A DNA stretch of 32,000 nt from NCBI RefSeq assembly GCF_000196355.1, contig NC_007614.1, positions 420,001 through 452,000 of the forward strand, read 5' to 3'. This document shows, piece by piece, positions 20,584 to 31,768 of the stretch. Both the position numbers and the translations under genes were made by a program. The DNA comes from Nitrosospira multiformis ATCC 25196 (lineage in GTDB: Bacteria > Pseudomonadota > Gammaproteobacteria > Burkholderiales > Nitrosomonadaceae). The first letter of the stretch is position 1; every line of letters starts with the position of its first letter. The notes below the pieces were generated by a model. That model did not search any database. It was given only the letters and a program-made list of their open reading frames with translations, and was not told where the DNA came from.

Positions 20584-20623
20584 GAGGGAAAGGGCGTGAT
20601 TGCGTAACGCCTCTTCCTTTATT
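20584..20623. terminator. Hairpin terminator between the convergent topB and ACP genes
   Basis: GAGGGAAAGGGCGT-(gattgcgta)-ACGCCTCTTCC followed by TTTATT on the plus strand. The stem is imperfect (one mismatch, G-U pairs) and abuts the ACP stop codon at 20619-20621. Confidence 0.4.
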
Positions 20624-20894
20624 GGGGGGGCGCCGATGGCTGATGGGTTTCGATGTAGGAGACGATATCCCCTACGGTGGTGAATCCCTTTGCTTCCTCG
20701 CTATCGAAATTGATGCCAAACGCATCTTCAGCGTCAAACAGAAGCTGTATCGTATCCATGGAGTCGAGTCCAAGTTCTTCAAATTTTGAAGAGCGGTTGA
20801 TAGTGGAAGCATCGAGATTCTCGACTTTTGTGGCAATGAATTGTATGACCTTTGCTTCAATCTCCGCTGTGTCCATATCTAGTTCTTCCTTCAT
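20619..20894 (-). CDS. Acyl carrier protein (dedicated, non-housekeeping context)
   Basis: 91-aa acidic ORF with the phosphopantetheine-attachment motif LGLDSMDTIQL. The start ATG overlaps the KAS stop (ATGA at 20891-20894). Confidence 0.85.
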   Translation of the reverse strand: MKEELDMDTAEIEAKVIQFIATKVENLDASTINRSSKFEELGLDSMDTIQLLFDAEDAFGINFDSEEAKGFTTVGDIVSYIETHQPSAPPQ

Positions 20895-22111
20895 GCAAGG
20901 GTTGTGAAAAGAATGCTCGCATTGTTGCCACCAAATCCGAAAGCGTTACACAAGCCGGTGCGGACACTTCTTTTCTGCGCAACGTTGGGGGTGTAGTCGA
21001 GGTCACACTCGGGATCGGCCTCATCAAGATTGATGGTCGGATGAATGGTGCCGGTATGAAGCGCCATGATGGTGGCGATACTGCCGATTGCTGCCGATGC
21101 GCCGATGGAATGCCCTACCATCGATTTGGTGGCGCTGATGGCAATGTCAGCAGCACGCGCTCCAAAAAGATTTTTTATTGCCCGCGTTTCGACTGTATCC
21201 CCCAGCGGTGTGGAAGTCGCATGCGCATTGATATGCTCAATGGAATCCAGCTCCATTCCCGCATCACGGATGGCTTCCTGCATGGCAGCGATCTGGCCTT
21301 CCATGTCGGGCATGACAATATGCGTTGCATCACATGCCTGTCCATAGCCGGCAAGCTCGGCATATATTTTTGCTCCCCGCTGGCGGGCCTGCTCTTCCTT
21401 CTCGAGGATCAGTATTCCCGCACCCTCTCCCATGACAAAACCATCGCGGCCTTTTGCGAAAGGACGCGAGGCTCTGGCTGGATTATCGTTGGAAGTGGTG
21501 GTCAGGGCGTGCAATATCTCAAAACCGTTGATGGTGAGCGGCAATACGCATGCTTCAGCACCGCCGGCGACCACAACGTCCGCTCTTCCTGCACGCAGGA
21601 GATCGAGTGCCGCACCGATGGCATTGGCTCCCGAAGAGCAAGCTGTACTGGAGGTCAGGTTCATGCCTTTGAACCCATGCCTGATCGCGATCCAGGCCGC
21701 AGCGGAGTTGGCCATTGTGCGTGGTACGGTGAAAGGCGGGACCGGCTGACTCCGAAACTTGCGCAGCGCGGACGATTCAAAGGTGGAAAAACCACCCATT
21801 CCCGAACCTATGCTCACCCCGATGCGGCGAGATTCATAAGCCTCAAGGCCGCCGGCGTCCTCGAGGGCAAGACGCGCAGCAAGCAGGGCAAGCTGGGTGA
21901 ACCTGTCGGTTTGCTCGATATACTTTTGAGAGAGGAAGGTTGAAGGATCAAAGTCCGTCACTTCTCCTGCAATTTGGGAACGCCTGCTCGATGCATCAAA
22001 GCTGGTTATCCTTTTTATTCCGCTCACACCCTTGACAGCGGCTGACCAGAACTGGTCAACCCCGATACCAATGGGGGAAACAACTCCCATTCCTGTAACG
22101 ACTACACGCAT
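20891..22111 (-). CDS. Beta-ketoacyl-ACP synthase, KAS I/II (FabF-like) family
   Basis: 406-aa ORF with MRVVVTGMGVVSPIG, the active-site Cys in TACSSGANAIG, the two His in NAHATSTPLGD and KSMVGHSIGASAA, and the C-terminal NAFGFGGNNASILF. Confidence 0.9.
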   Translation of the reverse strand: MRVVVTGMGVVSPIGIGVDQFWSAAVKGVSGIKRITSFDASSRRSQIAGEVTDFDPSTFLSQKYIEQTDRFTQLALLAARLALEDAGGLEAYESRRIGVSIGSGMGGFSTFESSALRKFRSQPVPPFTVPRTMANSAAAWIAIRHGFKGMNLTSSTACSSGANAIGAALDLLRAGRADVVVAGGAEACVLPLTINGFEILHALTTTSNDNPARASRPFAKGRDGFVMGEGAGILILEKEEQARQRGAKIYAELAGYGQACDATHIVMPDMEGQIAAMQEAIRDAGMELDSIEHINAHATSTPLGDTVETRAIKNLFGARAADIAISATKSMVGHSIGASAAIGSIATIMALHTGTIHPTINLDEADPECDLDYTPNVAQKRSVRTGLCNAFGFGGNNASILFTTLA

Positions 22112-22297: not shown

Positions 22298-22552
22298 CTA
22301 TTTTGCGTTGAATATCATTGGGAACAGGTATCTCAATATGCCTCCCATAATCCAGATGACGAGTAATAAACTCGAGATGACCGCTGCCCCTTCGATAAGC
22401 GCTGACACGAGCGTTGCAGCCAAGCTATCGAATTCCTGTTGCCCGGCTTCGTTGCGCCGGCGCTTGCGGCGGTTCCTTACCCATACTTGCAGCCCGATAA
22501 CGACAGGAATAAGGGCGAGAGACACTAGCAGGTTATACTCAGAACTTTCCAT
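22298..22552 (-). CDS. Small two-TM membrane protein with a polybasic loop (hypothetical)
   Basis: 84-aa ORF with two hydrophobic helices flanking RNRRKRRRNE. GGAAGG lies about 10 nt upstream of the ATG. It is on the same strand as, and upstream of, KAS/ACP. I see no recognisable family. Confidence 0.45.
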   Translation of the reverse strand: MESSEYNLLVSLALIPVVIGLQVWVRNRRKRRRNEAGQQEFDSLAATLVSALIEGAAVISSLLLVIWIMGGILRYLFPMIFNAK

Positions 22553-22926: not shown

Positions 22927-24081
22927 ATGAAAAAAAAGATTAGCGGCCCGCACTTCCCGGAAGTCATTGTCCGTCCGGTCAGAAGCTATCGGGAAATGGG
23001 AATTTTTATCGATATTCCCTGGAGTATTTACGCTGACGATCCCATGTGGGTGCCTCCTTTACGGCTTGAGCGGCGACTACATTTTTCGAGATTCAATCCC
23101 TTTTTCAAGCACGGAAAATGGCAGGCCTGGATTGCATACAGGGATGATCAGCCGGTGGGAAGGATCAGCGCCCAGATCGATCAACTGCATCGGGAACGCT
23201 ACGGCGGTCATACCGGACATTTCGGTCTGTTCGAATGCATAGATGACAAGGAGGTTTCAGCCGCCCTCTTCCAGATGGCTGAGGCATGGCTGGGGGCGGA
23301 GCAGACGAGACATGTGACAGGCCCCTTCAATTTATCGATCAACCAGGAATGCGGCATATTGGTGGACGGTTTTGATAAGCCGCCAGTAGTGATGATGCCC
23401 CACTCCCGCAGATGGTACGGTCGCCTGCTGGAGGAACAAGGGTATCAACAGGCAAAGGATTTGCTTGCCTATTGGATAGAACTCGATTTCAAGGTGCCGC
23501 GGCTGATGGACGCCTTGATCGGTAAATTTGCGGATCAGGTGCACCTGAGAACTCTGCGCCGCGACAAGTTCAACGAGGAACTGGAAGTCCTGCGTGATAT
23601 ATTCAACGATGCCTGGTCCGAGAATTGGGGTTTCGTTCCTTTTACCCAGGCGGAGTTCGCGGAACTTGGCGCCAGCCTTCGCTTGCTCGTACCCGATGAT
23701 TGTATCCAGATTGCGGAGGTCGACGGGGTGCCCGCTGCGTTCATGGTGGCATTGCCAAACCTCAACGAAATTTTTGCCGAGCTGAACGGACACTTGTTTC
23801 CGTTTGGCTGGACCAGACTGGTCCGGATCAGATCCAGGGGAGGAGTGCGTACCGGTCGCATCCCATTAATGGGAGTACGCAGGCGCTTCCATAATACTCC
23901 GCTCGGTATGGCGCTTGCCTTCATGGTCATCGACGCGCCGAGGGAACTCGGACGAGTCATGGGAGTGAAGGCAATGGAATTATCCTGGATACTCGAGGAC
24001 AACAAACCCATGCGTGCCATTCTGGATAGTTTGGGCTGCAGGGAGTATAAACGTTACCGGATTTACCAGAAGATGCTGTGA
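22927..24081 (+). CDS. GNAT-like (apparently tandem acyl-CoA/acyl-ACP N-acyltransferase fold) protein, substrate unknown
   Basis: A 384-aa product if it starts at the ATG at 22927 (alternatives: ATG 22879, TTG 22792). The C-terminal half has a GNAT motif-A-like stretch (LMGVRRRFHNTPLGMALAFMV). The N-terminal half (QPVGRISAQID...GHFGLFECIDDKEVSAALFQMAEAWL) looks like a second, degenerate GNAT lobe. The family call is from motif resemblance only. Confidence 0.6.
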   Translation: MKKKISGPHFPEVIVRPVRSYREMGIFIDIPWSIYADDPMWVPPLRLERRLHFSRFNPFFKHGKWQAWIAYRDDQPVGRISAQIDQLHRERYGGHTGHFGLFECIDDKEVSAALFQMAEAWLGAEQTRHVTGPFNLSINQECGILVDGFDKPPVVMMPHSRRWYGRLLEEQGYQQAKDLLAYWIELDFKVPRLMDALIGKFADQVHLRTLRRDKFNEELEVLRDIFNDAWSENWGFVPFTQAEFAELGASLRLLVPDDCIQIAEVDGVPAAFMVALPNLNEIFAELNGHLFPFGWTRLVRIRSRGGVRTGRIPLMGVRRRFHNTPLGMALAFMVIDAPRELGRVMGVKAMELSWILEDNKPMRAILDSLGCREYKRYRIYQKML

Positions 24082-24127
24082 ATGCCGGATGGAGCAACTG
24101 AAGAACCGGAATCGGTAAAACGATGCA

Positions 24128-24976
24128 ATGAAAAAGAATGATCTGTTTACCGCCGTGGTGCTGGCAGCGGACCGCACGGCCCGCGATCCCATCTCCTTGG
24201 AAACGGGAGCACCCTGCAAGGCGTTCGCGCGCGTCGGAGGAATACCGATGATCATCCGCGTACTGGATGCGCTGGAAGCCAGCGGCATGGTGAAGAGCAT
24301 CATTTTGTGCGGGCCGCCCAAGTCCTTGCTGCCCGCTTGTCCGGAACTGCAGGAACGTATTCGCAATGGGCGCGTAGTCTGGCTGCCAAATCTCGATTCT
24401 CCCAGCCGCAGCGCTCGCAGCGGCCTCTCCCACGTGAATCAGGAGGCCCCGGTATTATTGACCACAGCCGACCACGCGTTGTTGACACCGGCCATCGTGC
24501 AATATTTTCTTCGCAACTCCCAGGCGTCGGATTGTGATGCTGCTGTCGGGGTCGTCAAATATGAAGATGTGGCAGCTGCATTTCCCGGGGCAAAGCGAAC
24601 GGTAATAAGGTTAAAGGATGCGAATATTTGCGGCTGCAACCTATATGCCTTTCTCAATGATCGCGGCCGCGGCCTCGTATCATTCTGGCAACGTGCGGAA
24701 GATCTGCGCAAGCGCCCGGTACGCTTGATCATGGAGACTTTCGGGTTTGCGACTGTCTTCTATTATCTGCTGGGGTTATTGACGATAGAAAGGGGATTGA
24801 GAGCAGTCAGAAGGAAAACCGGCATCAGGGCCCATCCGGTATTCCTGCCCTATCCTCAGGCGGGGGTCGATGTGGACAAGGTTGCAGATCTGGTACTTGC
24901 GGAATCGGTACTAGCGCGCAAGGCGCCGGCTGCCGGAGGAGGGTCCGATTTGCACGGACCCACTCCTGAAATGTGA
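24128..24976 (+). CDS. MobA-like (NTP_transf_3-type) nucleotidyltransferase family protein
   Basis: The N-terminus FTAVVLAADRTARDP...PCKAFARVGGIPMI resembles the LAGGxSxR...K..l...G.P.l signature. An internal LLTTADHALLTP and a C-terminal GVDVDKVADL are typical of this fold. Confidence 0.65.
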   Translation: MKKNDLFTAVVLAADRTARDPISLETGAPCKAFARVGGIPMIIRVLDALEASGMVKSIILCGPPKSLLPACPELQERIRNGRVVWLPNLDSPSRSARSGLSHVNQEAPVLLTTADHALLTPAIVQYFLRNSQASDCDAAVGVVKYEDVAAAFPGAKRTVIRLKDANICGCNLYAFLNDRGRGLVSFWQRAEDLRKRPVRLIMETFGFATVFYYLLGLLTIERGLRAVRRKTGIRAHPVFLPYPQAGVDVDKVADLVLAESVLARKAPAAGGGSDLHGPTPEM

Positions 24977-25009
24977 GAGGCTTGAATTCCGATCAACGCG
25001 ACAGGCAAC

Positions 25010-26086
25010 GTGAAAATAATAGAACGATATATCACGCGGGAACTGCTGATACCGTTTATGGTAGTCACCGTAATCCTTGCGACATTGTTTGCAAGTTTCA
25101 GTATGGCCCGTTTTCTTGCCGGAGCAGTGACAGATTCGCTTGGCCTTATCCCCGTGCTCAGGCTCGTGTTTCTGAAAACGCTGATCGCACTGGAAGTGCT
25201 GATGCCCATTGCCCTGTACGTGGCTGTCATCATGGGACTGGGTCGCCTGCACCGGGATCAGGAAATAGTCGTTTTGCGTTCCGCTGGGGTCAGCGAACAC
25301 CGCATTATCTATGCGGTGCTCATCGTTGCGATTCCTATGGGGCTTATCAGTGGTTTATTTTCCATTTTTGCGCGTCCATGGGCGTATGAGGAAAGCTACC
25401 TACTCAATGCCCAGGCAGAGGCAGAGTTGAATACGGATCGGTTCCGCGCCGGGCGTTTCTACGGCAGCGAAAAAAAAGGCCGGGTGATTTATGTGCAGGC
25501 CAAGGATAGCTCGGGCAAGCAGATGGGAGAGGTATTCCACTATCTGAACAAGCATGACAGCAGCGAGATCATTCTTGCCAAGAAAGCTCACCAGCCTGAG
25601 CTTGTGTTCGGCCAGCGCCCCCAGATACATCTGCTGGATGGCTCCATTTACCGGCTATCGCACACCGGAAAAGGCGATACCGTCGTCCAGTTTGAAAAGC
25701 TGGTTTATTTCACGGACAGCGGAAACGTAACGGATTACAGGCGCAAGGCTGCCTCTACCGCGGCATTGATGCAATCTGATCAGCCGCGGGATACTGCCGA
25801 GCTTCAGTGGCGGCTGTCGCGCCCGCTGGCAACGATCCTGCTGGCGCTGATAGCGGTGCCCTTCAGCCGCGCTTCACCCCGCCAGACAAAGGGAGATAAG
25901 ACTTATTATCTGGCAGCTCTGGTTTTCGCCATTTACTACATTTTGAGCGGATTGGCCCAGACTTGGGTCGAGCAGGGCACGATCGGGAGGGTGCCGGGTG
26001 TGTGGTGGCTCTATGCTGTCATGCTGCTGTTTGCAATCTCGTTATTATCGCCTGGTTTCTGGCGGAAGTTGCCTTTGCGCAGATGA
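25010..26086 (+). CDS. LptF-like permease (YjgP/YjgQ family), GTG start
   Basis: MKIIERYITRELLIPF has an LptF-type N-terminus. Three TM segments are followed by a roughly 130-aa soluble insert and three more TM segments, and the conserved ELQWRLSRPLATILLALIAVPFS...PRQ block is present. Confidence 0.8.
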   Translation: MKIIERYITRELLIPFMVVTVILATLFASFSMARFLAGAVTDSLGLIPVLRLVFLKTLIALEVLMPIALYVAVIMGLGRLHRDQEIVVLRSAGVSEHRIIYAVLIVAIPMGLISGLFSIFARPWAYEESYLLNAQAEAELNTDRFRAGRFYGSEKKGRVIYVQAKDSSGKQMGEVFHYLNKHDSSEIILAKKAHQPELVFGQRPQIHLLDGSIYRLSHTGKGDTVVQFEKLVYFTDSGNVTDYRRKAASTAALMQSDQPRDTAELQWRLSRPLATILLALIAVPFSRASPRQTKGDKTYYLAALVFAIYYILSGLAQTWVEQGTIGRVPGVWWLYAVMLLFAISLLSPGFWRKLPLRR

Positions 26087-27147
26087 CAATAATTTACCGC
26101 TACCTGGGGCTCCAGGTTTTGATGGGTCTGGGAATCGCTACCGCGGTGCTTCTGCCGCTCTTCGGTTTCCTTGATTTGCTGGATCAGCTCGATGACGTGG
26201 GAAAGGGCACGTACAGCGTCAAGGATGCGTTTCTTTATACGGCTCTACTGCTGCCGCGACGGTTTATTCAACTCGCGCCTTTCATTGCATTGATGGGCAA
26301 TGTAACTGCATTGGGAAGGCTTGCCGTCGGATCGGAACTGACGGCATTACGAGGAGCAGGGGTATCTCCGCTGGGCATCAGTCTCGCGCCGGTTGTCGTT
26401 GGAATAATTCTTTTACTGTTTATTACTGTACTGGATCAGTTCGTGGCGCCGCAATTTCAGCAGAAAGCCATTTCATCCCGCGCAGCCGCGCTCGAGAAGA
26501 GCGCCGCGCTTGGCCAACAATTAGGGATATGGACGCGGGATGAGCGGAATATACTGCGAATCGGAGAAATGCTGCATGCGAGAAGGGCGGCGAACATCGA
26601 AATAATGCATTTTGACGACAATGGCTTCCTGTTACGCTATACGTATGCCAAGTATGCTGATATCATAAACGAGGGGTTGTGGGAGTTAAGGGACGTCGTC
26701 ATCAAGACATTCAACGGCAATGCCATGGAGATCGTAAGCAGAGAATCGGTACCCTGGGAACCCTTCCTGAAGGAGGAGGATATCTCGACGTTGACCAAAT
26801 CGCCGGAAAGTCTCTCACCCGCCGAGTTATTTTTGCATGTGCATTTTCTGCGCGCCACGGGTCAGGAATCGGGCGCTTATGAGCTGGCGTTGTGGCGCAA
26901 GGCGGGTGGTGCCCTGACGACCATCGCGATGCTGTTGCTTTCGATTCCCTTTGTTTTTGGATCGGTGCGGGCAGGGCTCGGCAACCGACTCGTGGTTGCA
27001 TCGATGCTTGGAATCAGCGTCTATCTCTTCGACCAGATCACTGCCAATGCCGGCTTGTTACTGCATTTGAATCCGGCGCTGAGCGCACTTCTTCCAGGAG
27101 GGGTGCTGATCGCCGTAGCTTATTTCTGGTTACGGCGAATTTTTTAA
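26083..27147 (+). CDS. LptG-like permease (YjgP/YjgQ family)
   Basis: Start taken at the ATG at 26083, which overlaps the upstream TGA (ATGA). MTIIYRYLGLQV...LDQLDDVGKGTYSVKDA...SELTALRGAGVS and the C-terminal LWRKAGGALTTIAMLLLSIPFVFGSVRAG...YLFDQI closely resemble the LptG layout. Confidence 0.8.
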   Translation: MTIIYRYLGLQVLMGLGIATAVLLPLFGFLDLLDQLDDVGKGTYSVKDAFLYTALLLPRRFIQLAPFIALMGNVTALGRLAVGSELTALRGAGVSPLGISLAPVVVGIILLLFITVLDQFVAPQFQQKAISSRAAALEKSAALGQQLGIWTRDERNILRIGEMLHARRAANIEIMHFDDNGFLLRYTYAKYADIINEGLWELRDVVIKTFNGNAMEIVSRESVPWEPFLKEEDISTLTKSPESLSPAELFLHVHFLRATGQESGAYELALWRKAGGALTTIAMLLLSIPFVFGSVRAGLGNRLVVASMLGISVYLFDQITANAGLLLHLNPALSALLPGGVLIAVAYFWLRRIF

Positions 27148-27273
27148 CAAACCCCGGATTTGTTCACGATTTTCTTGACCTGAATGCCTGCCGCAATCTC
27201 GCGGAGCACTTGCAAAACCTATCAATTGACAACTCCAGACACAGAGATAAGCAAGCAGCTGGCGGATTCGTCG

Positions 27274-28467
27274 ATGCCTGTTTATATCCACATCATTGGC
27301 GACAGCGAAACCGATATCTGGGGCTTGAGTGGCCGGGAACGCCTGCAGCGCATGTTAAAAGCATTCGCCGGGACGAGGCTGGTTGACAATCCAGCACGGA
27401 TTCCCGCTCCTGCCTCGGCACTGCTTTTACGCGGGGATTATCTTTTTGACGCTATCGTGCTGGACGCGCTGCTCAAAGCAAAAACAGATCTTATGCTCGT
27501 CAGCGATGAGGATAAGCCAGTCGCAGTGCGGATTTCCGGTGAGAACGTGCATCAGGTGCTTGCCGAATTTGCAGGCGAAGGACAAAATCTTTCTTCCTTG
27601 CGGCGTTATGAACTGGGAGAGCTCGGTCTGCCAAATCTACGCCAGAACCTCAAGAAAAGAGATGCCCCTTACGTTTTACCGATCAGCAGGAACAGCCGCT
27701 GCAATCTGGAGTCAGAGCTCTTCAAACGGTCTTACAAAGGGGTGACCGACTTTGTGACAAAGTGGCTTTGGCCAGCGCCTGCATTTCATGCGGTACACTT
27801 CTGCATCCGTATGGGTCTGCGCCCCAACCATATTACACTGCTCAGTCTTTTGTTTGCTGTGCTGGCCGGGGTTGCGTTCTGGTATGGTTTCTATGGGTCG
27901 GGACTGGTGATGGGATGGTTCATGACCTTCCTGGACACCGTCGACGGCAAACTGGCACGGGTAACCGTTACTTCCAGCCGCTTCGGTGACGTGCTCGACC
28001 ACGGCCTGGATATCATTCATCCGCCGCTCTGGTACATTGCCTGGGGGGTGGGGTTGTCCGCCGACTATTCCTTATCCTCGCATCTGCCCCTATTATTCGC
28101 GCTGATTCTTATCGGTTACATCGGCGGACGGCTGTGTGAGGGAGCATTCCAGTTCTGGGTCGCGTCATTCGATATTTTTATCTGGCGTCCACTGGATTCC
28201 TTCAATCGGCTCATTACTGCCCGCCGCAACCCCAATCTTGTTCTGCTGACATTCGGCTGGCTGGCGGGAAGGCCGGATATCGGCCTTTTGTCCGTCGTGA
28301 TCTGGCACTTGCTTTCGACCGGTTTTCTCTTGGTGAGAGTGGCGATGGGATGGGTATCGCGCCGGTCGTGTGGACCCTTGCATTCCTGGTTTGAGGAGAT
28401 CGTTGGGGGACAGGATGAAGGAAAGCTGGCCGTTCGTATTTTTGCACCTTTAAAATCACGTAAATGA
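27274..28467 (+). CDS. CDP-alcohol phosphatidyltransferase family protein with a ~170-aa N-terminal cytoplasmic extension
   Basis: The canonical motif D-x2-D-G-x2-A-R-x8-G-x3-D-x3-D is read as DTVDGKLARVTVTSSRFGDVLDHGLD, and the C-terminal half is multi-TM. I prefer the start ATG at 27274 (MPVYIHIIGD, GGCGGA upstream) over 27184. Confidence 0.85.
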   Translation: MPVYIHIIGDSETDIWGLSGRERLQRMLKAFAGTRLVDNPARIPAPASALLLRGDYLFDAIVLDALLKAKTDLMLVSDEDKPVAVRISGENVHQVLAEFAGEGQNLSSLRRYELGELGLPNLRQNLKKRDAPYVLPISRNSRCNLESELFKRSYKGVTDFVTKWLWPAPAFHAVHFCIRMGLRPNHITLLSLLFAVLAGVAFWYGFYGSGLVMGWFMTFLDTVDGKLARVTVTSSRFGDVLDHGLDIIHPPLWYIAWGVGLSADYSLSSHLPLLFALILIGYIGGRLCEGAFQFWVASFDIFIWRPLDSFNRLITARRNPNLVLLTFGWLAGRPDIGLLSVVIWHLLSTGFLLVRVAMGWVSRRSCGPLHSWFEEIVGGQDEGKLAVRIFAPLKSRK

Positions 28468-29480
28468 CAGAAAGATCACGGGTCGATAGATTGAAGTCTG
28501 GAACAGGATCCGTCGGATTGCTTTTCAATCCGCTCAGTGGGCGCATCCGTAAGCGGAAGGAGGCGATCCGGCGGGCGGCGGAGGAGATTCCCGGTGCTTG
28601 CAGGGAAGTGACGAATGCTCGAGAAATCAGCGCGTCGGTGGATACGTTCGTGAACGATGGCACGGATCTCCTGATCATTATCGGCGGGGATGGCACGGTA
28701 CAGGGTGTACTGTCCCATCTGTTCGCCACTCAGCCTTTGGCAAAGTGGCCCGTCCTGACGATAGTGCCTGGCGGTACAACCAACATGACCGCGCTCGATC
28801 TCGGCATAAGAGGGAGCCCGGAATCCGTCCTGCGGCAATTGAGCGCCTCCTTTCAAAAAGATTTCCCCTCCGCGCTCGTGGAGCGTCATGTTCTTTGCAT
28901 AGAACAGGCCGGCGCGGAGAAGGTTTATGGGATGTTTTTCGGCGTGGGACTCATCGCCCGCGCCGTGATCTTTTCCCAGAGCAGGATAAAGCGGTTGGGT
29001 ATTACCGGAGAAATCTACTCTGCTCTTATCACCTTCGGTTATGTTGCAGGCTTCCTGCTCGGGCGGCGTCAGGGAGCATGGGCCCCGGTCCGGATGACCA
29101 TTACCGAGAAAACCTTATCCCGGCCCCATGGAACCTACGCGTTTCTTTTCGCCAGCACCCTCGACCGTCTGTTGTTCGGCATGAGGCCATACTGGGGCGG
29201 GCAACCGGAGCCGCTGCACGTCACATTCGTCAGGCAGCAGCGGCAGCTTCCCTTGCGTTCCGTGCTCCGGTTGTTGATAGGACGTGGAAACGATCTCAAG
29301 GACAAGGATGGTTATCATAGTTGCAACACCGATGAACTGGAGTTGCTGATCGATGACGATTACATCGTCGACGGCGAGTCTTATCGTGCCACCAGTCAGG
29401 GTGGACCCTTGCGCATTACGCCTGCTGGCCCGATCATCTTTCTGGCGGCGGAGAGGGCGGCCGCAAACGCAAAATCATGA
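28464..29480 (+). CDS. Diacylglycerol-kinase-catalytic-domain lipid kinase (LCB5/YegS-like)
   Basis: GLLFNPLSGR followed by LLIIIGGDGTVQGV, the DAGK_cat signature. It is a soluble 338-aa protein. The start overlaps the upstream stop (ATGA at 28464-28467). Confidence 0.85.
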   Translation: MTERSRVDRLKSGTGSVGLLFNPLSGRIRKRKEAIRRAAEEIPGACREVTNAREISASVDTFVNDGTDLLIIIGGDGTVQGVLSHLFATQPLAKWPVLTIVPGGTTNMTALDLGIRGSPESVLRQLSASFQKDFPSALVERHVLCIEQAGAEKVYGMFFGVGLIARAVIFSQSRIKRLGITGEIYSALITFGYVAGFLLGRRQGAWAPVRMTITEKTLSRPHGTYAFLFASTLDRLLFGMRPYWGGQPEPLHVTFVRQQRQLPLRSVLRLLIGRGNDLKDKDGYHSCNTDELELLIDDDYIVDGESYRATSQGGPLRITPAGPIIFLAAERAAANAKS

Positions 29481-30463
29481 GTATTCTTCAAGGGGCTGCA
29501 ACAGCAGATCCGCCGCTTCCCGAAGGTTTGATTTCGGAGATGGCGACACTGAGTTCAAATACGGTATCCGCGGATTTTCTCGTTTTGCTCGAGGCGTTGA
29601 AATTGCGCTTCGGTTCAGCCCTCGACGCTGTGCTTCTTTATGGATCGTGCCTGCGCGCGCGTGAGATAGGGGATGGGGTGGTCGATTTTTACGCGGTTGT
29701 GAGCAGTTACAGCAGTGCTTACCCGGAGCGCTATCTGCGCTATTTCAACACATTGCTACCTCCGAATGTCTTTTATCTGGAGGTATCCCAAGAGGAGAAA
29801 ACGTTTCGCGCCAAGTATGCGGTGGTTTCAATGGCTGACTTCGAGCAGGGGACCCGTCGCTGGTTCCATCCTTATCTCTGGGCGCGTTTTGCTCAGCCCT
29901 CGAGGTTATTATTTTTCCGCGACGAGGCTGCTCGCAAGCGAATTTCGGAGTCTCTAGCCCATGCGGTCGTCACTTTTCTCGGATCCACCCTGCCTACCCT
30001 CGATTGTTCCGGGACCGGAGCGACTACCACCGAAATGATCTGGACCAATGGATTGACCCAGACCTACGCGGCGGAATTGCGGCCGGAGAGAGCAGGGCGC
30101 GCGCGCCAGCTCGCACAGATGAACCTGGAGGTCTATTCACGCCTGACTACCCTGGCAGTACCTGCACTGGCAGGAAAATTGATGCCCCTCCCGGATGGAA
30201 GTTACGAATCTCTGATAGACGATGCAGGACGTCGGAAGTCACTTTGGCACTGGCAGCTGCGGCGTTGGCAGGGAAAAGTCCTGTCCGTGCTGCGGCTGTC
30301 AAAGGCGGCTTTTACCTTTCATGACAGCATTAGCTATGCGGCCTGGAAAATCGAGCGCCACACCGGTATTCGCGTCGAGGTGACTCCTATGCTACGGCGC
30401 CATCCCCTGTTGTGGGGTTTCAAAGTTTCCTGGCGCCTGCTGCGGCGTGGCGTATTACGCTGA
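29477..30463 (+). CDS. Pol-beta-type nucleotidyltransferase-fold protein resembling the Tam41/Mmp37 phosphatidate cytidylyltransferase family
   Basis: 328-aa ORF whose start overlaps the upstream stop (ATGA at 29477-29480). It has an NTase-like LLYGSCLRAREIGDGVVDFYAVV. The blocks PPNVFYLEV...KYAVVSMADFEQG...W...YLWARFAQPSRLLF parallel my recollection of yeast Tam41 (GAGVYFNP...KYGVVSMETLLKDI..W..FYLAGRLQKPVKIL). The coding call is firm; the family call is from memory. Confidence 0.55.
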   Translation: MSILQGAATADPPLPEGLISEMATLSSNTVSADFLVLLEALKLRFGSALDAVLLYGSCLRAREIGDGVVDFYAVVSSYSSAYPERYLRYFNTLLPPNVFYLEVSQEEKTFRAKYAVVSMADFEQGTRRWFHPYLWARFAQPSRLLFFRDEAARKRISESLAHAVVTFLGSTLPTLDCSGTGATTTEMIWTNGLTQTYAAELRPERAGRARQLAQMNLEVYSRLTTLAVPALAGKLMPLPDGSYESLIDDAGRRKSLWHWQLRRWQGKVLSVLRLSKAAFTFHDSISYAAWKIERHTGIRVEVTPMLRRHPLLWGFKVSWRLLRRGVLR

Positions 30464-30562: not shown

Positions 30563-31768
30563 TCATGAGTACGCTTCCGCTTCAGCGGAGTCATGTCGTA
30601 TGGTTTCTCTTGATCGGAGAATCAAGTCGCATACCTCGCGAACCGCGCCGTGGCCACCCGAATATTCACACATATAATGGGCCTGCCGCACGACCAGGGG
30701 GACAGCATCCGCCGGGCAGAAGGCAACGCCTACGCGGCTCAGGCATTCCAGATCGCTGAGGTCATCACCCACATACCCGATATTTTCCAGAGGAACCCCC
30801 CAGCGTTTGGAAAGCTTTAGGAGGAGAGGAAATTTATCGCTTATGCCCGGGTAGTATTCGTCGATGCGCAATTTTCTCATCCTTGCTTCAACGGAAGGAC
30901 TAGTCTCGGTGGTGATTACGCAAACCCCGAGGCCATGTTCACGCAACCGTTGCAAACCATGGGCGTCGCGAGTATTGAATTTTTTCAAGGCTTCGCCGGC
31001 GGGGCCGTAATACATTCCCGCATCCGTCAACGTTCCGTCCACATCGAGTACCAGAAACTTGATTCGTGACGCGCGGGCTTGGACCGACCCCCGTTCCTGC
31101 TCCCGTAAAAGACGCTCCACGATGTTCCAGCCAGCCTCTCCGGTGATCTCGATCGCAGTTTCGGGCGCCATCTCGTGAATACCCATGCGTCCACCCAGAT
31201 AATGATCGTTGTCTCGAAGTAATTTTTCATGTGTCAGATAGAAGGCGCCATTTTCCAGCAGGTATCCCTCCGGATTCGATGCATCGCATGACGCACGGGA
31301 TTTTAGCGGGTCATGACCGACGGGTTCTCCCATCCTTGTCCACAGAAACCGTCTGGACGGCGCAGCTGTCAGAAGCGAGTCAAGATTTTCCGAAAGAAAT
31401 TTGCGCTTAGCGGCACGAAAATCTTCAGCACGCGTGAGGGGCGAGGCTGCCTGTATTGAACAGACGACGTCGAAGGGGATCTTCTGCTGAAACGTGTGTA
31501 GGAGACTGGTCCAATTCTCTACGCCCGTACGGGTTGCGCCACTGCAATCGAGAATCTCGATTATCGTGTCGGCTCGCGAAAATTCTTCCACTATCCGTTT
31601 TCGAATGACAGGCGGGTCGGCAGTTACGTAAATGGTGTCGAAACATCCCGATATGACGGCCTGCTCCAAGCTCCAGGAAAATAATGGCCTTCCCGCCATG
31701 CTGCGTGCGCTGCTTCGGGAAACCGGCCCGAAATTTCCATGCAAAGGCGCGAAAGCTACCCAGCGCAT
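30563..31768 (-). CDS. Bifunctional acylneuraminate cytidylyltransferase-like (NeuA/CTP_transf_3) + KdsC-type HAD phosphatase
   Basis: The N-terminal half has SIQAASPLTRAEDF and LENGAFYLT (NeuA-like). The C-terminal half has FLVLDVDGTLTD, FNTRDAHG, YVGDDLSDLECL and GGHGAVREVCDLIL, very close to KdsC. The start overlaps the neuB-like stop by 1 nt (TGATG). Confidence 0.85.
   Translation of the reverse strand: MRWVAFAPLHGNFGPVSRSSARSMAGRPLFSWSLEQAVISGCFDTIYVTADPPVIRKRIVEEFSRADTIIEILDCSGATRTGVENWTSLLHTFQQKIPFDVVCSIQAASPLTRAEDFRAAKRKFLSENLDSLLTAAPSRRFLWTRMGEPVGHDPLKSRASCDASNPEGYLLENGAFYLTHEKLLRDNDHYLGGRMGIHEMAPETAIEITGEAGWNIVERLLREQERGSVQARASRIKFLVLDVDGTLTDAGMYYGPAGEALKKFNTRDAHGLQRLREHGLGVCVITTETSPSVEARMRKLRIDEYYPGISDKFPLLLKLSKRWGVPLENIGYVGDDLSDLECLSRVGVAFCPADAVPLVVRQAHYMCEYSGGHGAVREVCDLILRSRETIRHDSAEAEAYS

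Follow-up and report, generated by a model that had tools for sequence, protein, structure and literature searches.

A probable Caulobacter-type phosphosphingolipid completion and export module in Nitrosospira multiformis

Described phosphosphingolipid loci and the Nitrosospira block

Caulobacter makes two phosphosphingolipids, ceramide phosphoglycerate (CPG) and CPG2, by means of the genes CC_1152-CC_1168 (Olea-Ozuna et al. 2024, PLoS Pathog, PMC11324152). Deletion of cpgB stops this pathway at ceramide, deletion of cpgC at ceramide-phosphate, and deletion of cpgA at CPG (PMC9393093), while CpgD makes glycerate activated with cytidine diphosphate (CDP-glycerate; PMC12275187). Here we describe a block of seven plus-strand genes, ORF1 to ORF7, at positions 22927-30463 of a 32-kb stretch of the Nitrosospira multiformis ATCC 25196 genome (NC_007614.1, positions 420,001 to 452,000; hereafter the window). 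We consider it highly probable, at about 0.85, that these genes serve a Caulobacter-type phosphosphingolipid pathway as the module that completes ceramide, attaches the head group, and exports the lipid. The block thus represents a new genus for a known pathway and not an uncharacterised system.

The published comparison that bears most directly on the window comes from the same family, the Nitrosomonadaceae. Neut_1100-1106 of Nitrosomonas eutropha C91 match the block family by family and in gene order, and were tabulated, from bioinformatics only, as orthologues of Caulobacter genes (PMC11324152, Fig 7 and S2D Table), with BLAST identities of 24-41% and E values of 1e-9 to 5e-105; the individual pairings are listed in Table 1. 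A first-pass annotation of the window had been unable to match this combination of genes to a named pathway, but it does match this published set of orthologues of the Caulobacter phosphosphingolipid genes. It had also taken the lack of spt, the gene for serine palmitoyltransferase (SPT), as an argument against sphingolipid synthesis. In N. eutropha, spt-acpR-cerR-aasR correspond to Neut_0458-0461, elsewhere in the genome, as does the CpgD (CC_1152) orthologue Neut_0268, with 44% identity (PMC11324152), and spt is found within 10 kb of the cluster in 7 related loci. Because spt is encoded in a separate region in N. eutropha, its absence from the 32-kb window carries no weight, and the earlier argument falls.

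The Caulobacter region shares its enzyme families with the block, and the proposed route is also alike, running from ceramide through ceramide-1-phosphate and CPG to CPG2 and then Lpt-type export. There, however, the genes occupy several operons, in company with spt, acpR, cerR, aasR, cpgD, lptC2, and genes for a phosphoesterase, a HIT protein, and a flippase, whereas in Nitrosospira seven Caulobacter-type genes are packed into one co-directional block from which those partners are missing. The seven-gene block has no gene for an ATPase, LptC, a flippase, CpgD, or a phosphoesterase. The yghO-aasR-cerR-acpR-spt-lptG2-lptF2 locus of Escherichia coli (B and B2 strains) shares with the window the YghO-type ceramide synthase (48% identity) and LptF2/LptG2 (34-35%), and is linked to spt. 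Unlike the Nitrosospira block, it has no gene for a kinase, a Tam41-like protein, or a CDP-alcohol transferase in its annotated flanks, and none of the 13 proteins compared from it matched ORF5, ORF6, or ORF7; it carries instead YtfJ-family, flippase-like, and YghR/S/T genes. Nothing specific emerged from literature searches on Tam41 with LptF and CDP-alcohol, or on Nitrosospira with SPT or sphingolipid.

Both the ORF listing and direct translation gave seven ORFs that are each in frame with one terminal stop. Spacers of 46 nt (ORF1/ORF2), 33 nt (ORF2/ORF3), and 36 nt (ORF4/ORF5; 126 nt with the alternative start) separate some of the genes, and the other junctions are ATGA overlaps at 26083-26086 (ORF3/ORF4), 28464-28467 (ORF5/ORF6), and 29477-29480 (ORF6/ORF7). 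The ORF count, coordinates, junction lengths, and overlaps of the first-pass annotation were all reproduced in this way. The overlaps and short spacers fit co-expression of the seven genes and suggest a single transcript. Promoter and terminator scans returned 8 and 12 candidates against shuffled expectations of 5.3 and 8.9, and because neither exceeds background they are uninformative on operon boundaries. At the end of lptG lies a GC-rich hairpin (Table 1), conserved solely in the closest relatives (the N. multiformis group of Nitrosospira); the surrounding region, 27095-27190, folds at -27.8 kcal/mol with a z-score of -2.4. The hairpin may act as an internal terminator or attenuator, or may be a mere by-product of the coding sequence. 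Of the earlier proposal of one expression unit, the anatomy stands, and the single transcript is best kept provisional. GC content is uniform over the region and so gives no sign of recent insertion.

Conservation of the block and linkage to ceramide genes

A genome-collection scan with a 14-sequence alignment of ORF7 yielded 80 related loci. The seven genes occur in the same order and on the same strand in 33 of the 80, which come from Nitrosospira, Nitrosomonas including N. europaea, other gammaproteobacterial metagenome-assembled genomes, and Nitrospirales. Eight further loci, including that of Nitrococcus mobilis, are without ORF5 only, and many of the remaining loci are broken by contig ends. 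In 2 Desulfobacterota loci (L066 and L072) the same families are present with their order and strand rearranged. The collinear arrangement of the seven genes is far beyond chance. Judged by homologues and related loci, the window belongs to a Nitrosospira close to N. multiformis; its proteins are 87-97% identical to those of L004 and L014 and 45-61% identical, protein by protein, to those of the same seven genes in N. europaea (L035). The ORF6 protein is found in identical form on FNVK01000001.1 (GCA_900108135.1) and in two sequencing-run assemblies.

Genes for making the sphingoid base and ceramide travel with the cluster in other genomes. Within 10 kb of it, SPT is encoded in 7 loci, AasR in 23, CerR in 14, and AcpR in 8. 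In Nitrosomonas sp. Nm51, for example, AasR, CerR, and SPT are encoded 4-8 kb downstream of the cluster; the Nm51 SPT matches Sphingomonas (S. wittichii) SPT structures with an E value of 4e-121, compared with 4e-60 for KBL.

Outside the Nitrosomonadaceae, the cluster frequently contains additional genes. A reverse-strand calcineurin-like metallophosphoesterase gene resembling CC_1158 stands between lptG and cpgA in 27 loci of other taxa, and a PF00483 nucleotidyltransferase gene (CpgD-like) stands between ORF2 and lptF in 13 loci by clustering. Because other taxa have these interposed genes and Caulobacter has several operons, the tight grouping of the seven genes in Nitrosomonadaceae is a derived state. 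Two further genes were seen in loci from outside this family, an LpxO-like Asp/Asn beta-hydroxylase in 12 and an ELM1-like glycosyltransferase in 6 (examples of extra cluster genes are given in Table 1). Clusters without ORF5 (L011, L012, L013, L018, L056, L060, L065, and L069; also L044, L045, and L063) include some from Nitrosospira and Nitrosovibrio, and parallel the situation in Zymomonas, which is predicted to end at CPG.

Predicted functions of the seven proteins

The seven families called in the first-pass annotation largely hold, and none of the ORFs falls into an unrelated family: profile hidden Markov models (HMMs) are secure for ORF2 to ORF6, and structure models rescued the faint ORF1 (GNAT) and ORF7 (Tam41). 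What had been described as a GNAT-like acyltransferase is correct as to fold, but its specific type had been overlooked. ORF1 is 48% identical to E. coli YghO over its full length (E value of 6e-135), and in the annotated E. coli chromosome YghO adjoins genes for an acyl-AMP ligase, an epimerase, an acyl carrier protein (ACP), and spt. YghO, CC_1154, and Neut_1100 have been grouped as the acyl-CoA N-acyltransferase gene needed for dihydroceramide synthesis. The AlphaFold2 (AF2) model of ORF1 (pLDDT 73) finds its best PDB matches in the tandem GNATs 5kf1, 7q3a, and 2wpw, with E values of about 1e-13 and TM-scores of 0.55-0.71. No transmembrane segment is predicted, so the protein should be soluble. 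By its likeness to YghO, ORF1 is assigned to the bacterial ceramide synthase (bCerS) type, a predicted tandem-GNAT N-acyltransferase. ORF2 belongs to PF12804 NTP_transf_3 (E value of 2.8e-17), with 2dpw (TTHA0179) as its best PDB match (2e-18), and a homologue sits between ORF1 and LptF in most related loci. Position and order make it the predicted counterpart of CC_1153 and Neut_1101, a MobA/CofC-like nucleotidyltransferase; CC_1153 is required for CPG2 in Caulobacter.

ORF6 carries a PF00781 DAGK_cat domain (E value of 6.7e-17) with GGDG at residue 74 and no transmembrane segment, and only distantly matches DgkB and BmrU in the PDB (5e-4). It is predicted to be a CpgB-type lipid (ceramide) kinase of the DAGK/LCB5 family, the counterpart of CC_1160 and Neut_1105, and purified Caulobacter CpgB is a ceramide kinase (PMC10331486).

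The neighbouring ORF7 belongs to a family of 1141 clusters at 50% identity. When its family profile was compared with the PDB, Tam41 structures (6ig2 and 6ig4) were the sole matches, at an E value of 0.08. The AF2 model (pLDDT 82, pTM 0.83) was used in a Foldseek search of the PDB, where the top five matches were all Tam41, including the bacterial 7ecd (E values of 3e-7 to 2e-6, TM-scores of 0.45-0.58). One close homologue has a precomputed PF09139 match, some members are titled phosphatidate cytidylyltransferase in UniRef, and CC_1161 carries the Tam41/Mmp37 signature IPR015222 via InterPro (PMC11324152). With the Tam41/Mmp37 CDP-diacylglycerol synthases (PF09139; 6ig2, 6ig4, 7ecd) ORF7 shares the predicted fold and a KY.V.S..D...W..YL..RF.QP stretch, but it is just 12-15% identical to them and has a conserved C-terminal region of its own (WKIERHTG, RRHP). 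Whereas Tam41 acts on phosphatidate, the substrate of ORF7, judged from the Caulobacter cpgC deletion, is likely ceramide-1-phosphate. On its modelled fold we assign ORF7 as CpgC-type, the counterpart of CC_1161 and Neut_1106, and it probably works as a Tam41-type nucleotidyltransferase even though it lies outside PF09139 by the HMM criterion.

In the window, ORF6 and ORF7 lie in different frames, whereas in Nitrosomonas ureae Nm13 the kinase and Tam41-like domains form a single ORF of 664 aa (L032, 8951-10945). The same fusion occurs in six more Nitrosomonas and Nitrosospira loci (L008, L014, L023, L027, L028, and L030; P0121 is also listed), and a 662-aa database representative is consistent with it. 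These natural fusions support ORF6 and ORF7 acting in consecutive steps, and back a CpgC that acts directly on the ceramide-1-phosphate made by CpgB.

ORF5 matches PF01066 CDP-OH_P_transf at residues 214-304 (E value of 3e-9), with the motif intact (D251TVDGKLAR...GDVLDHGLD276, pattern DxxDGxxAR...GxxxDxxxD). A cytoplasmic N-terminal domain of about 200 aa is followed by 3-4 transmembrane-like segments after residue 217, an architecture that agrees with the published description of CC_1159. Likeness to distant homologues mostly starts around residues 30-34. Its best PDB matches are PIP synthases (E value of 1e-6), and it falls far below the NCBIfam cut-offs for archaetidylinositol-P synthase (53 bits against 180), PIP synthase (39 against 170), and IPCT-DIPPS (30 against 580). 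An IPCT-DIPPS-like bifunctional enzyme was considered, and the N-terminal domain matches NTP_transf_4 faintly, with an E value of 0.19. It is likewise below the cut-offs of the housekeeping enzymes PgsA and PssA. ORF5 is thus assigned, on motif and architecture, as CpgA-type, the counterpart of CC_1159 and Neut_1104.

The two permeases score well above the NCBIfam equivalog cut-offs that define the exporters of lipopolysaccharide (LPS), ORF3 with 348 bits for TIGR04407 (LptF, cut-off 230) and ORF4 with 327 bits for TIGR04408 (LptG, cut-off 240); multiple transmembrane segments are predicted in ORF3. E. coli has a housekeeping lptFG and a second pair beside spt, and the PGAP/RefSeq annotation labels the spt-linked pair (L084, 20800-22946; NZ_OW967178.1) "LPS export ABC transporter permease LptG/LptF". 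Since the spt-linked copies share the LptF and LptG names, the equivalog cut-offs do not discriminate between the two kinds and do not establish LPS as the substrate. Direct comparison does separate them. ORF3 is 35% identical to the LptF of the E. coli sphingolipid locus (182-202 bits) and 24% to K-12 LptF (84-107 bits); ORF4 is 34% identical to the LptG of the sphingolipid locus (177-181 bits) and 29% to K-12 LptG (141-146 bits). Among the cluster proteins, all 60 LptF compared and 57 of the 64 LptG likewise score better with the sphingolipid-locus copy than with K-12. A neighbour-joining tree places the window permeases with the E. coli sphingolipid-locus copies and leaves the K-12 proteins as outgroup to every cluster copy, with a bootstrap of 74 for LptG. 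By these comparisons ORF3 and ORF4 are identified as putative LptF2 and LptG2, sphingolipid-locus permeases apart from the E. coli housekeeping pair. In Caulobacter, LptF2 and LptG2 are essential once the anionic lipid (CPG2) is made, and bind the sole LptB (preprint 10.64898/2026.04.12.717747). A practical warning for annotation follows: sphingolipid-locus permeases pass the LptF/LptG equivalog thresholds and get named LPS exporters.

The present analysis provides the anatomy of the genes, their family and fold assignments, their synteny, their link to spt in other genomes, and the affinity of the permeases to LptF2/LptG2, and the roles of the enzymes and the product are taken from the Caulobacter literature. 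Combining the two, a sphingoid base would be supplied by SPT, AcpR, AasR, and CerR, presumably encoded elsewhere in the genome, and would be N-acylated by ORF1 (bCerS) to (dihydro)ceramide, which ORF6 would phosphorylate to ceramide-1-phosphate. ORF7 would then act on ceramide-1-phosphate, most likely giving CDP- or NDP-activated ceramide en route to CPG. For the CpgC step, Zik et al. propose direct addition of glycerate (PMC9393093) and Olea-Ozuna et al. nucleotide activation (PMC11324152); because of the Tam41 fold, we infer that a CDP-ceramide-type intermediate is the most plausible for ORF7. ORF5 would move a further phospho-alcohol from a CDP-alcohol donor onto the lipid from the ORF7 step, the donor for CpgA in Caulobacter being thought to be the CDP-glycerate made by CpgD, and ORF2 would supply a second nucleotide activation. 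Finally, ORF3 and ORF4 would pull the anionic lipid out of the inner membrane and pass it on towards the outer membrane, with the cell's LptB as the presumed source of power, and the product in Nitrosospira would be the same as in Caulobacter. The chemical logic proposed from the window alone (phosphorylation, nucleotide activation, head-group attachment, acylation, a second nucleotidyltransferase, and Lpt-like export) had already come close to this CPG/CPG2 scheme (PMC11324152, PMC9393093, PMC12275187, 10.64898/2026.04.12.717747).

Competing readings and genomic surroundings

Several points weigh against assigning the block to the phosphosphingolipid pathway. Neither the 32-kb window nor the 21-kb locus L001 contains an SPT, CerR, AasR, AcpR, CpgD-like, or phosphoesterase gene, and in a homologue search seeded with the Nm51 SPT the best 120 matches listed were all from Nitrosomonas, with at least 78% identity. 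Two of the family calls miss their Pfam thresholds, ORF1 for GNAT (18.6 bits against 20.7) and ORF7 for Tam41_Mmp37 (PF09139; 11.8 bits against 24, E value of 0.15). The orthology with Caulobacter is drawn from the published N. eutropha table together with comparisons with E. coli and Nitrosomonas, and the enzyme activities of CpgC, CpgA, and CC_1153 are putative in Caulobacter itself. In vitro, CpgB accepts diacylglycerol as a substrate as well (PMC10331486). The literature searched contained no account of a phosphosphingolipid from a nitrifier or of sphingolipids in Nitrosospira.

One alternative is a sphingolipid module whose head group differs from the mono- or di-phosphoglycerate of Caulobacter, such as phosphoglycerol, phosphoinositol, or a longer phospho-polymer. 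It is favoured by the lack of a CpgD-like (PF00483) or CC_1158-like gene in the window and L001 when both lie inside the cluster in other taxa, and by the fact that, in HMM and PDB comparisons, ORF5 comes nearest among characterised proteins to (archaetidyl)inositol-phosphate synthases, though well short of every family cut-off. Some Nitrosospira and Nitrosovibrio loci are without ORF5, so the product varies within the family, and Zik et al. could not exclude higher polymers (PMC9393093). Set against this are the CpgD orthologue of N. eutropha and the closeness of Neut_1104 to CpgA (41% identity over 96% coverage; PMC11324152), which make the same chemistry the simplest account, and we regard a different head group as unlikely. 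A broader proposal would have the nitrifier block make an anionic outer-membrane lipid unlike CPG2, with another head group or, if spt is truly absent, a non-sphingoid backbone, exported by a possibly sole LptFG that serves LPS too. The other head group is proposed here because the locus has neither CpgD nor the phosphoesterase and some members of the genus do without ORF5; as a whole this proposal seems rather improbable.

A glycerolipid pathway without any sphingolipid, in which the kinase gives phosphatidic acid, the Tam41-like protein converts it to CDP-diacylglycerol, and ORF5 makes an unusual phospholipid, would draw on the CDP-diacylglycerol synthase activity of Tam41 proper, on the in vitro activity of CpgB towards diacylglycerol, and on the lack of spt in the window, with the Nitrosomonas-only matches among the 120 listed. 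It would, however, leave a ceramide-synthase-type ORF1 without a role, and other genomes have spt, acpR, aasR, and cerR in company with the cluster. Moreover, nearly all genera with cpgB encode sphingolipid synthesis, and deletion of cpgB in Caulobacter leaves phosphatidic acid unaltered (PMC10331486), so that we give this pathway very little credence. Just as improbable is an ordinary LPS export operon with a housekeeping lptFG and neighbours that decorate lipid A or core by phosphorylation or with a phospho-alcohol, since the equivalog scores and the downstream convergent cytidylyltransferase-KdsC-like fusion and NeuB that might suggest it are countered by the failure of those cut-offs to discriminate, by the closeness of both permeases to the second E. 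coli copies, and by the conservation of the NeuB-side genes in Nitrosospira only (about 7 loci) when the seven-gene set extends across phyla.

The surroundings of the seven-gene block differ between the two nitrifier genera. The Nitrosospira cluster is flanked by divergent fabF-acp and by convergent nonulosonic-acid genes, both lacking in Nitrosomonas loci; the fabF-acp pair goes with the cluster in about 11 loci, from Nitrosospira and its closest relatives, and in no Nitrosomonas locus, and may provide a dedicated acyl-chain supply. The ACP was rejected as a candidate AcpR, scoring 45 bits (35% identity) to E. coli AcpP against 22 bits to E. coli AcpR. On the other side, the cytidylyltransferase-KdsC-like fusion is followed (L001, 12100-18891) by NeuB, a 466-aa protein, a second CTP_transf_3 protein, a GFO/IDH oxidoreductase, and an SDR, and the convergent set resembles a nonulosonic-acid (sialic/Kdn-like) pathway; only in Nitrosospira is it conserved beside the cluster, in about 7 loci. 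About 9 kb downstream of the cluster are a two-domain PLD-like (PLDc_2) gene of the cardiolipin-synthase/phospholipase type (L001, 19047-20156, minus strand) and then a GT2 gene. In Nitrosomonas loci, unlike those of Nitrosospira, the ORF7 homologue is directly followed by a DUF2959 gene (E value of 7e-86), with a lipoprotein-like N-terminus by eye, as in L019 (10974-11621); a further 18 loci of the Nitrosomonadaceae type, most of them from Nitrosomonas, show it too. Some Nitrosospira and Nitrosovibrio loci have NAD-epimerase genes downstream of ORF7; these were rejected as CerR, having no match to the L043 or E. coli CerR at an E value of 1e-10. The 84-aa ORF listed in Table 1 has no Pfam match. 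The remainder of the window holds ordinary chromosomal genes, encoding a CYTH-CHAD protein, an NtrY/X-like pair, rsmB, fmt, def, dprA, a topoisomerase, and a glycolysis and pentose-phosphate/Calvin-type set (aldolase, pyruvate kinase, PGK, GAPDH, transketolase).

Table 1. Features of the seven-gene block and its surroundings, with the Caulobacter and N. eutropha counterparts tabulated in PMC11324152. Positions are those of the window unless a locus is named.
Feature	Position	Strand	Remarks	Caulobacter	N. eutropha
ORF1, predicted bCerS	22927..24081	+	384 aa; alternative in-frame starts 22879, 22792	CC_1154 (bCerS)	Neut_1100
ORF2, predicted MobA/CofC-like nucleotidyltransferase	24128..24976	+	282 aa	CC_1153 (MobA/CofC-like nucleotidyltransferase)	Neut_1101
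ORF3, putative LptF2	25010..26086	+	358 aa; GTG start	CC_1156 (LptF2)	Neut_1102
ORF4, putative LptG2	26083..27147	+	354 aa; start overlaps lptF stop (ATGA)	CC_1155 (LptG2)	Neut_1103
ORF5, predicted CpgA-type	27184..28467	+	427 aa; 397 aa from alternative ATG 27274	CC_1159 (CpgA)	Neut_1104
ORF6, predicted CpgB-type	28464..29480	+	338 aa	CC_1160 (CpgB)	Neut_1105
ORF7, predicted CpgC-type	29477..30463	+	328 aa	CC_1161 (CpgC, Tam41 signature)	Neut_1106
Hairpin	27110..27138	+	11 bp, GC-rich, then AUUUUUU; within last lptG codons, 36 nt before ORF5		
fabF-like gene	20891-22111	-	TIGR03150, 521 bits; divergent from the block		
ACP gene	20619-20894	-	after fabF-like gene, ranges share 4 nt; below AcpP cut-offs		
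84-aa ORF	22298-22552	-	divergent intergenic; hydrophobic N-terminal stretch, RRKRRR; gene in NCBI record		
CMP-sugar cytidylyltransferase-like + KdsC/KDN-9-phosphatase-like HAD fusion	30563-31768	-	convergent with ORF7		
Extra cluster gene, non-Nitrosomonadaceae example	L046 6750-7742	-			
Extra cluster gene, non-Nitrosomonadaceae example	L044 14132-14926	-			
Extra cluster gene, non-Nitrosomonadaceae example	L044 10976-11746	+			
Extra cluster gene, non-Nitrosomonadaceae example	L058 2568-3689	+			

Ammonia and nitrite oxidisers (Nitrosospira, Nitrosovibrio, Nitrosomonas, Nitrococcus, and Nitrospirales) probably carry an anionic outer-membrane phosphosphingolipid together with a dedicated Lpt-type exporter.

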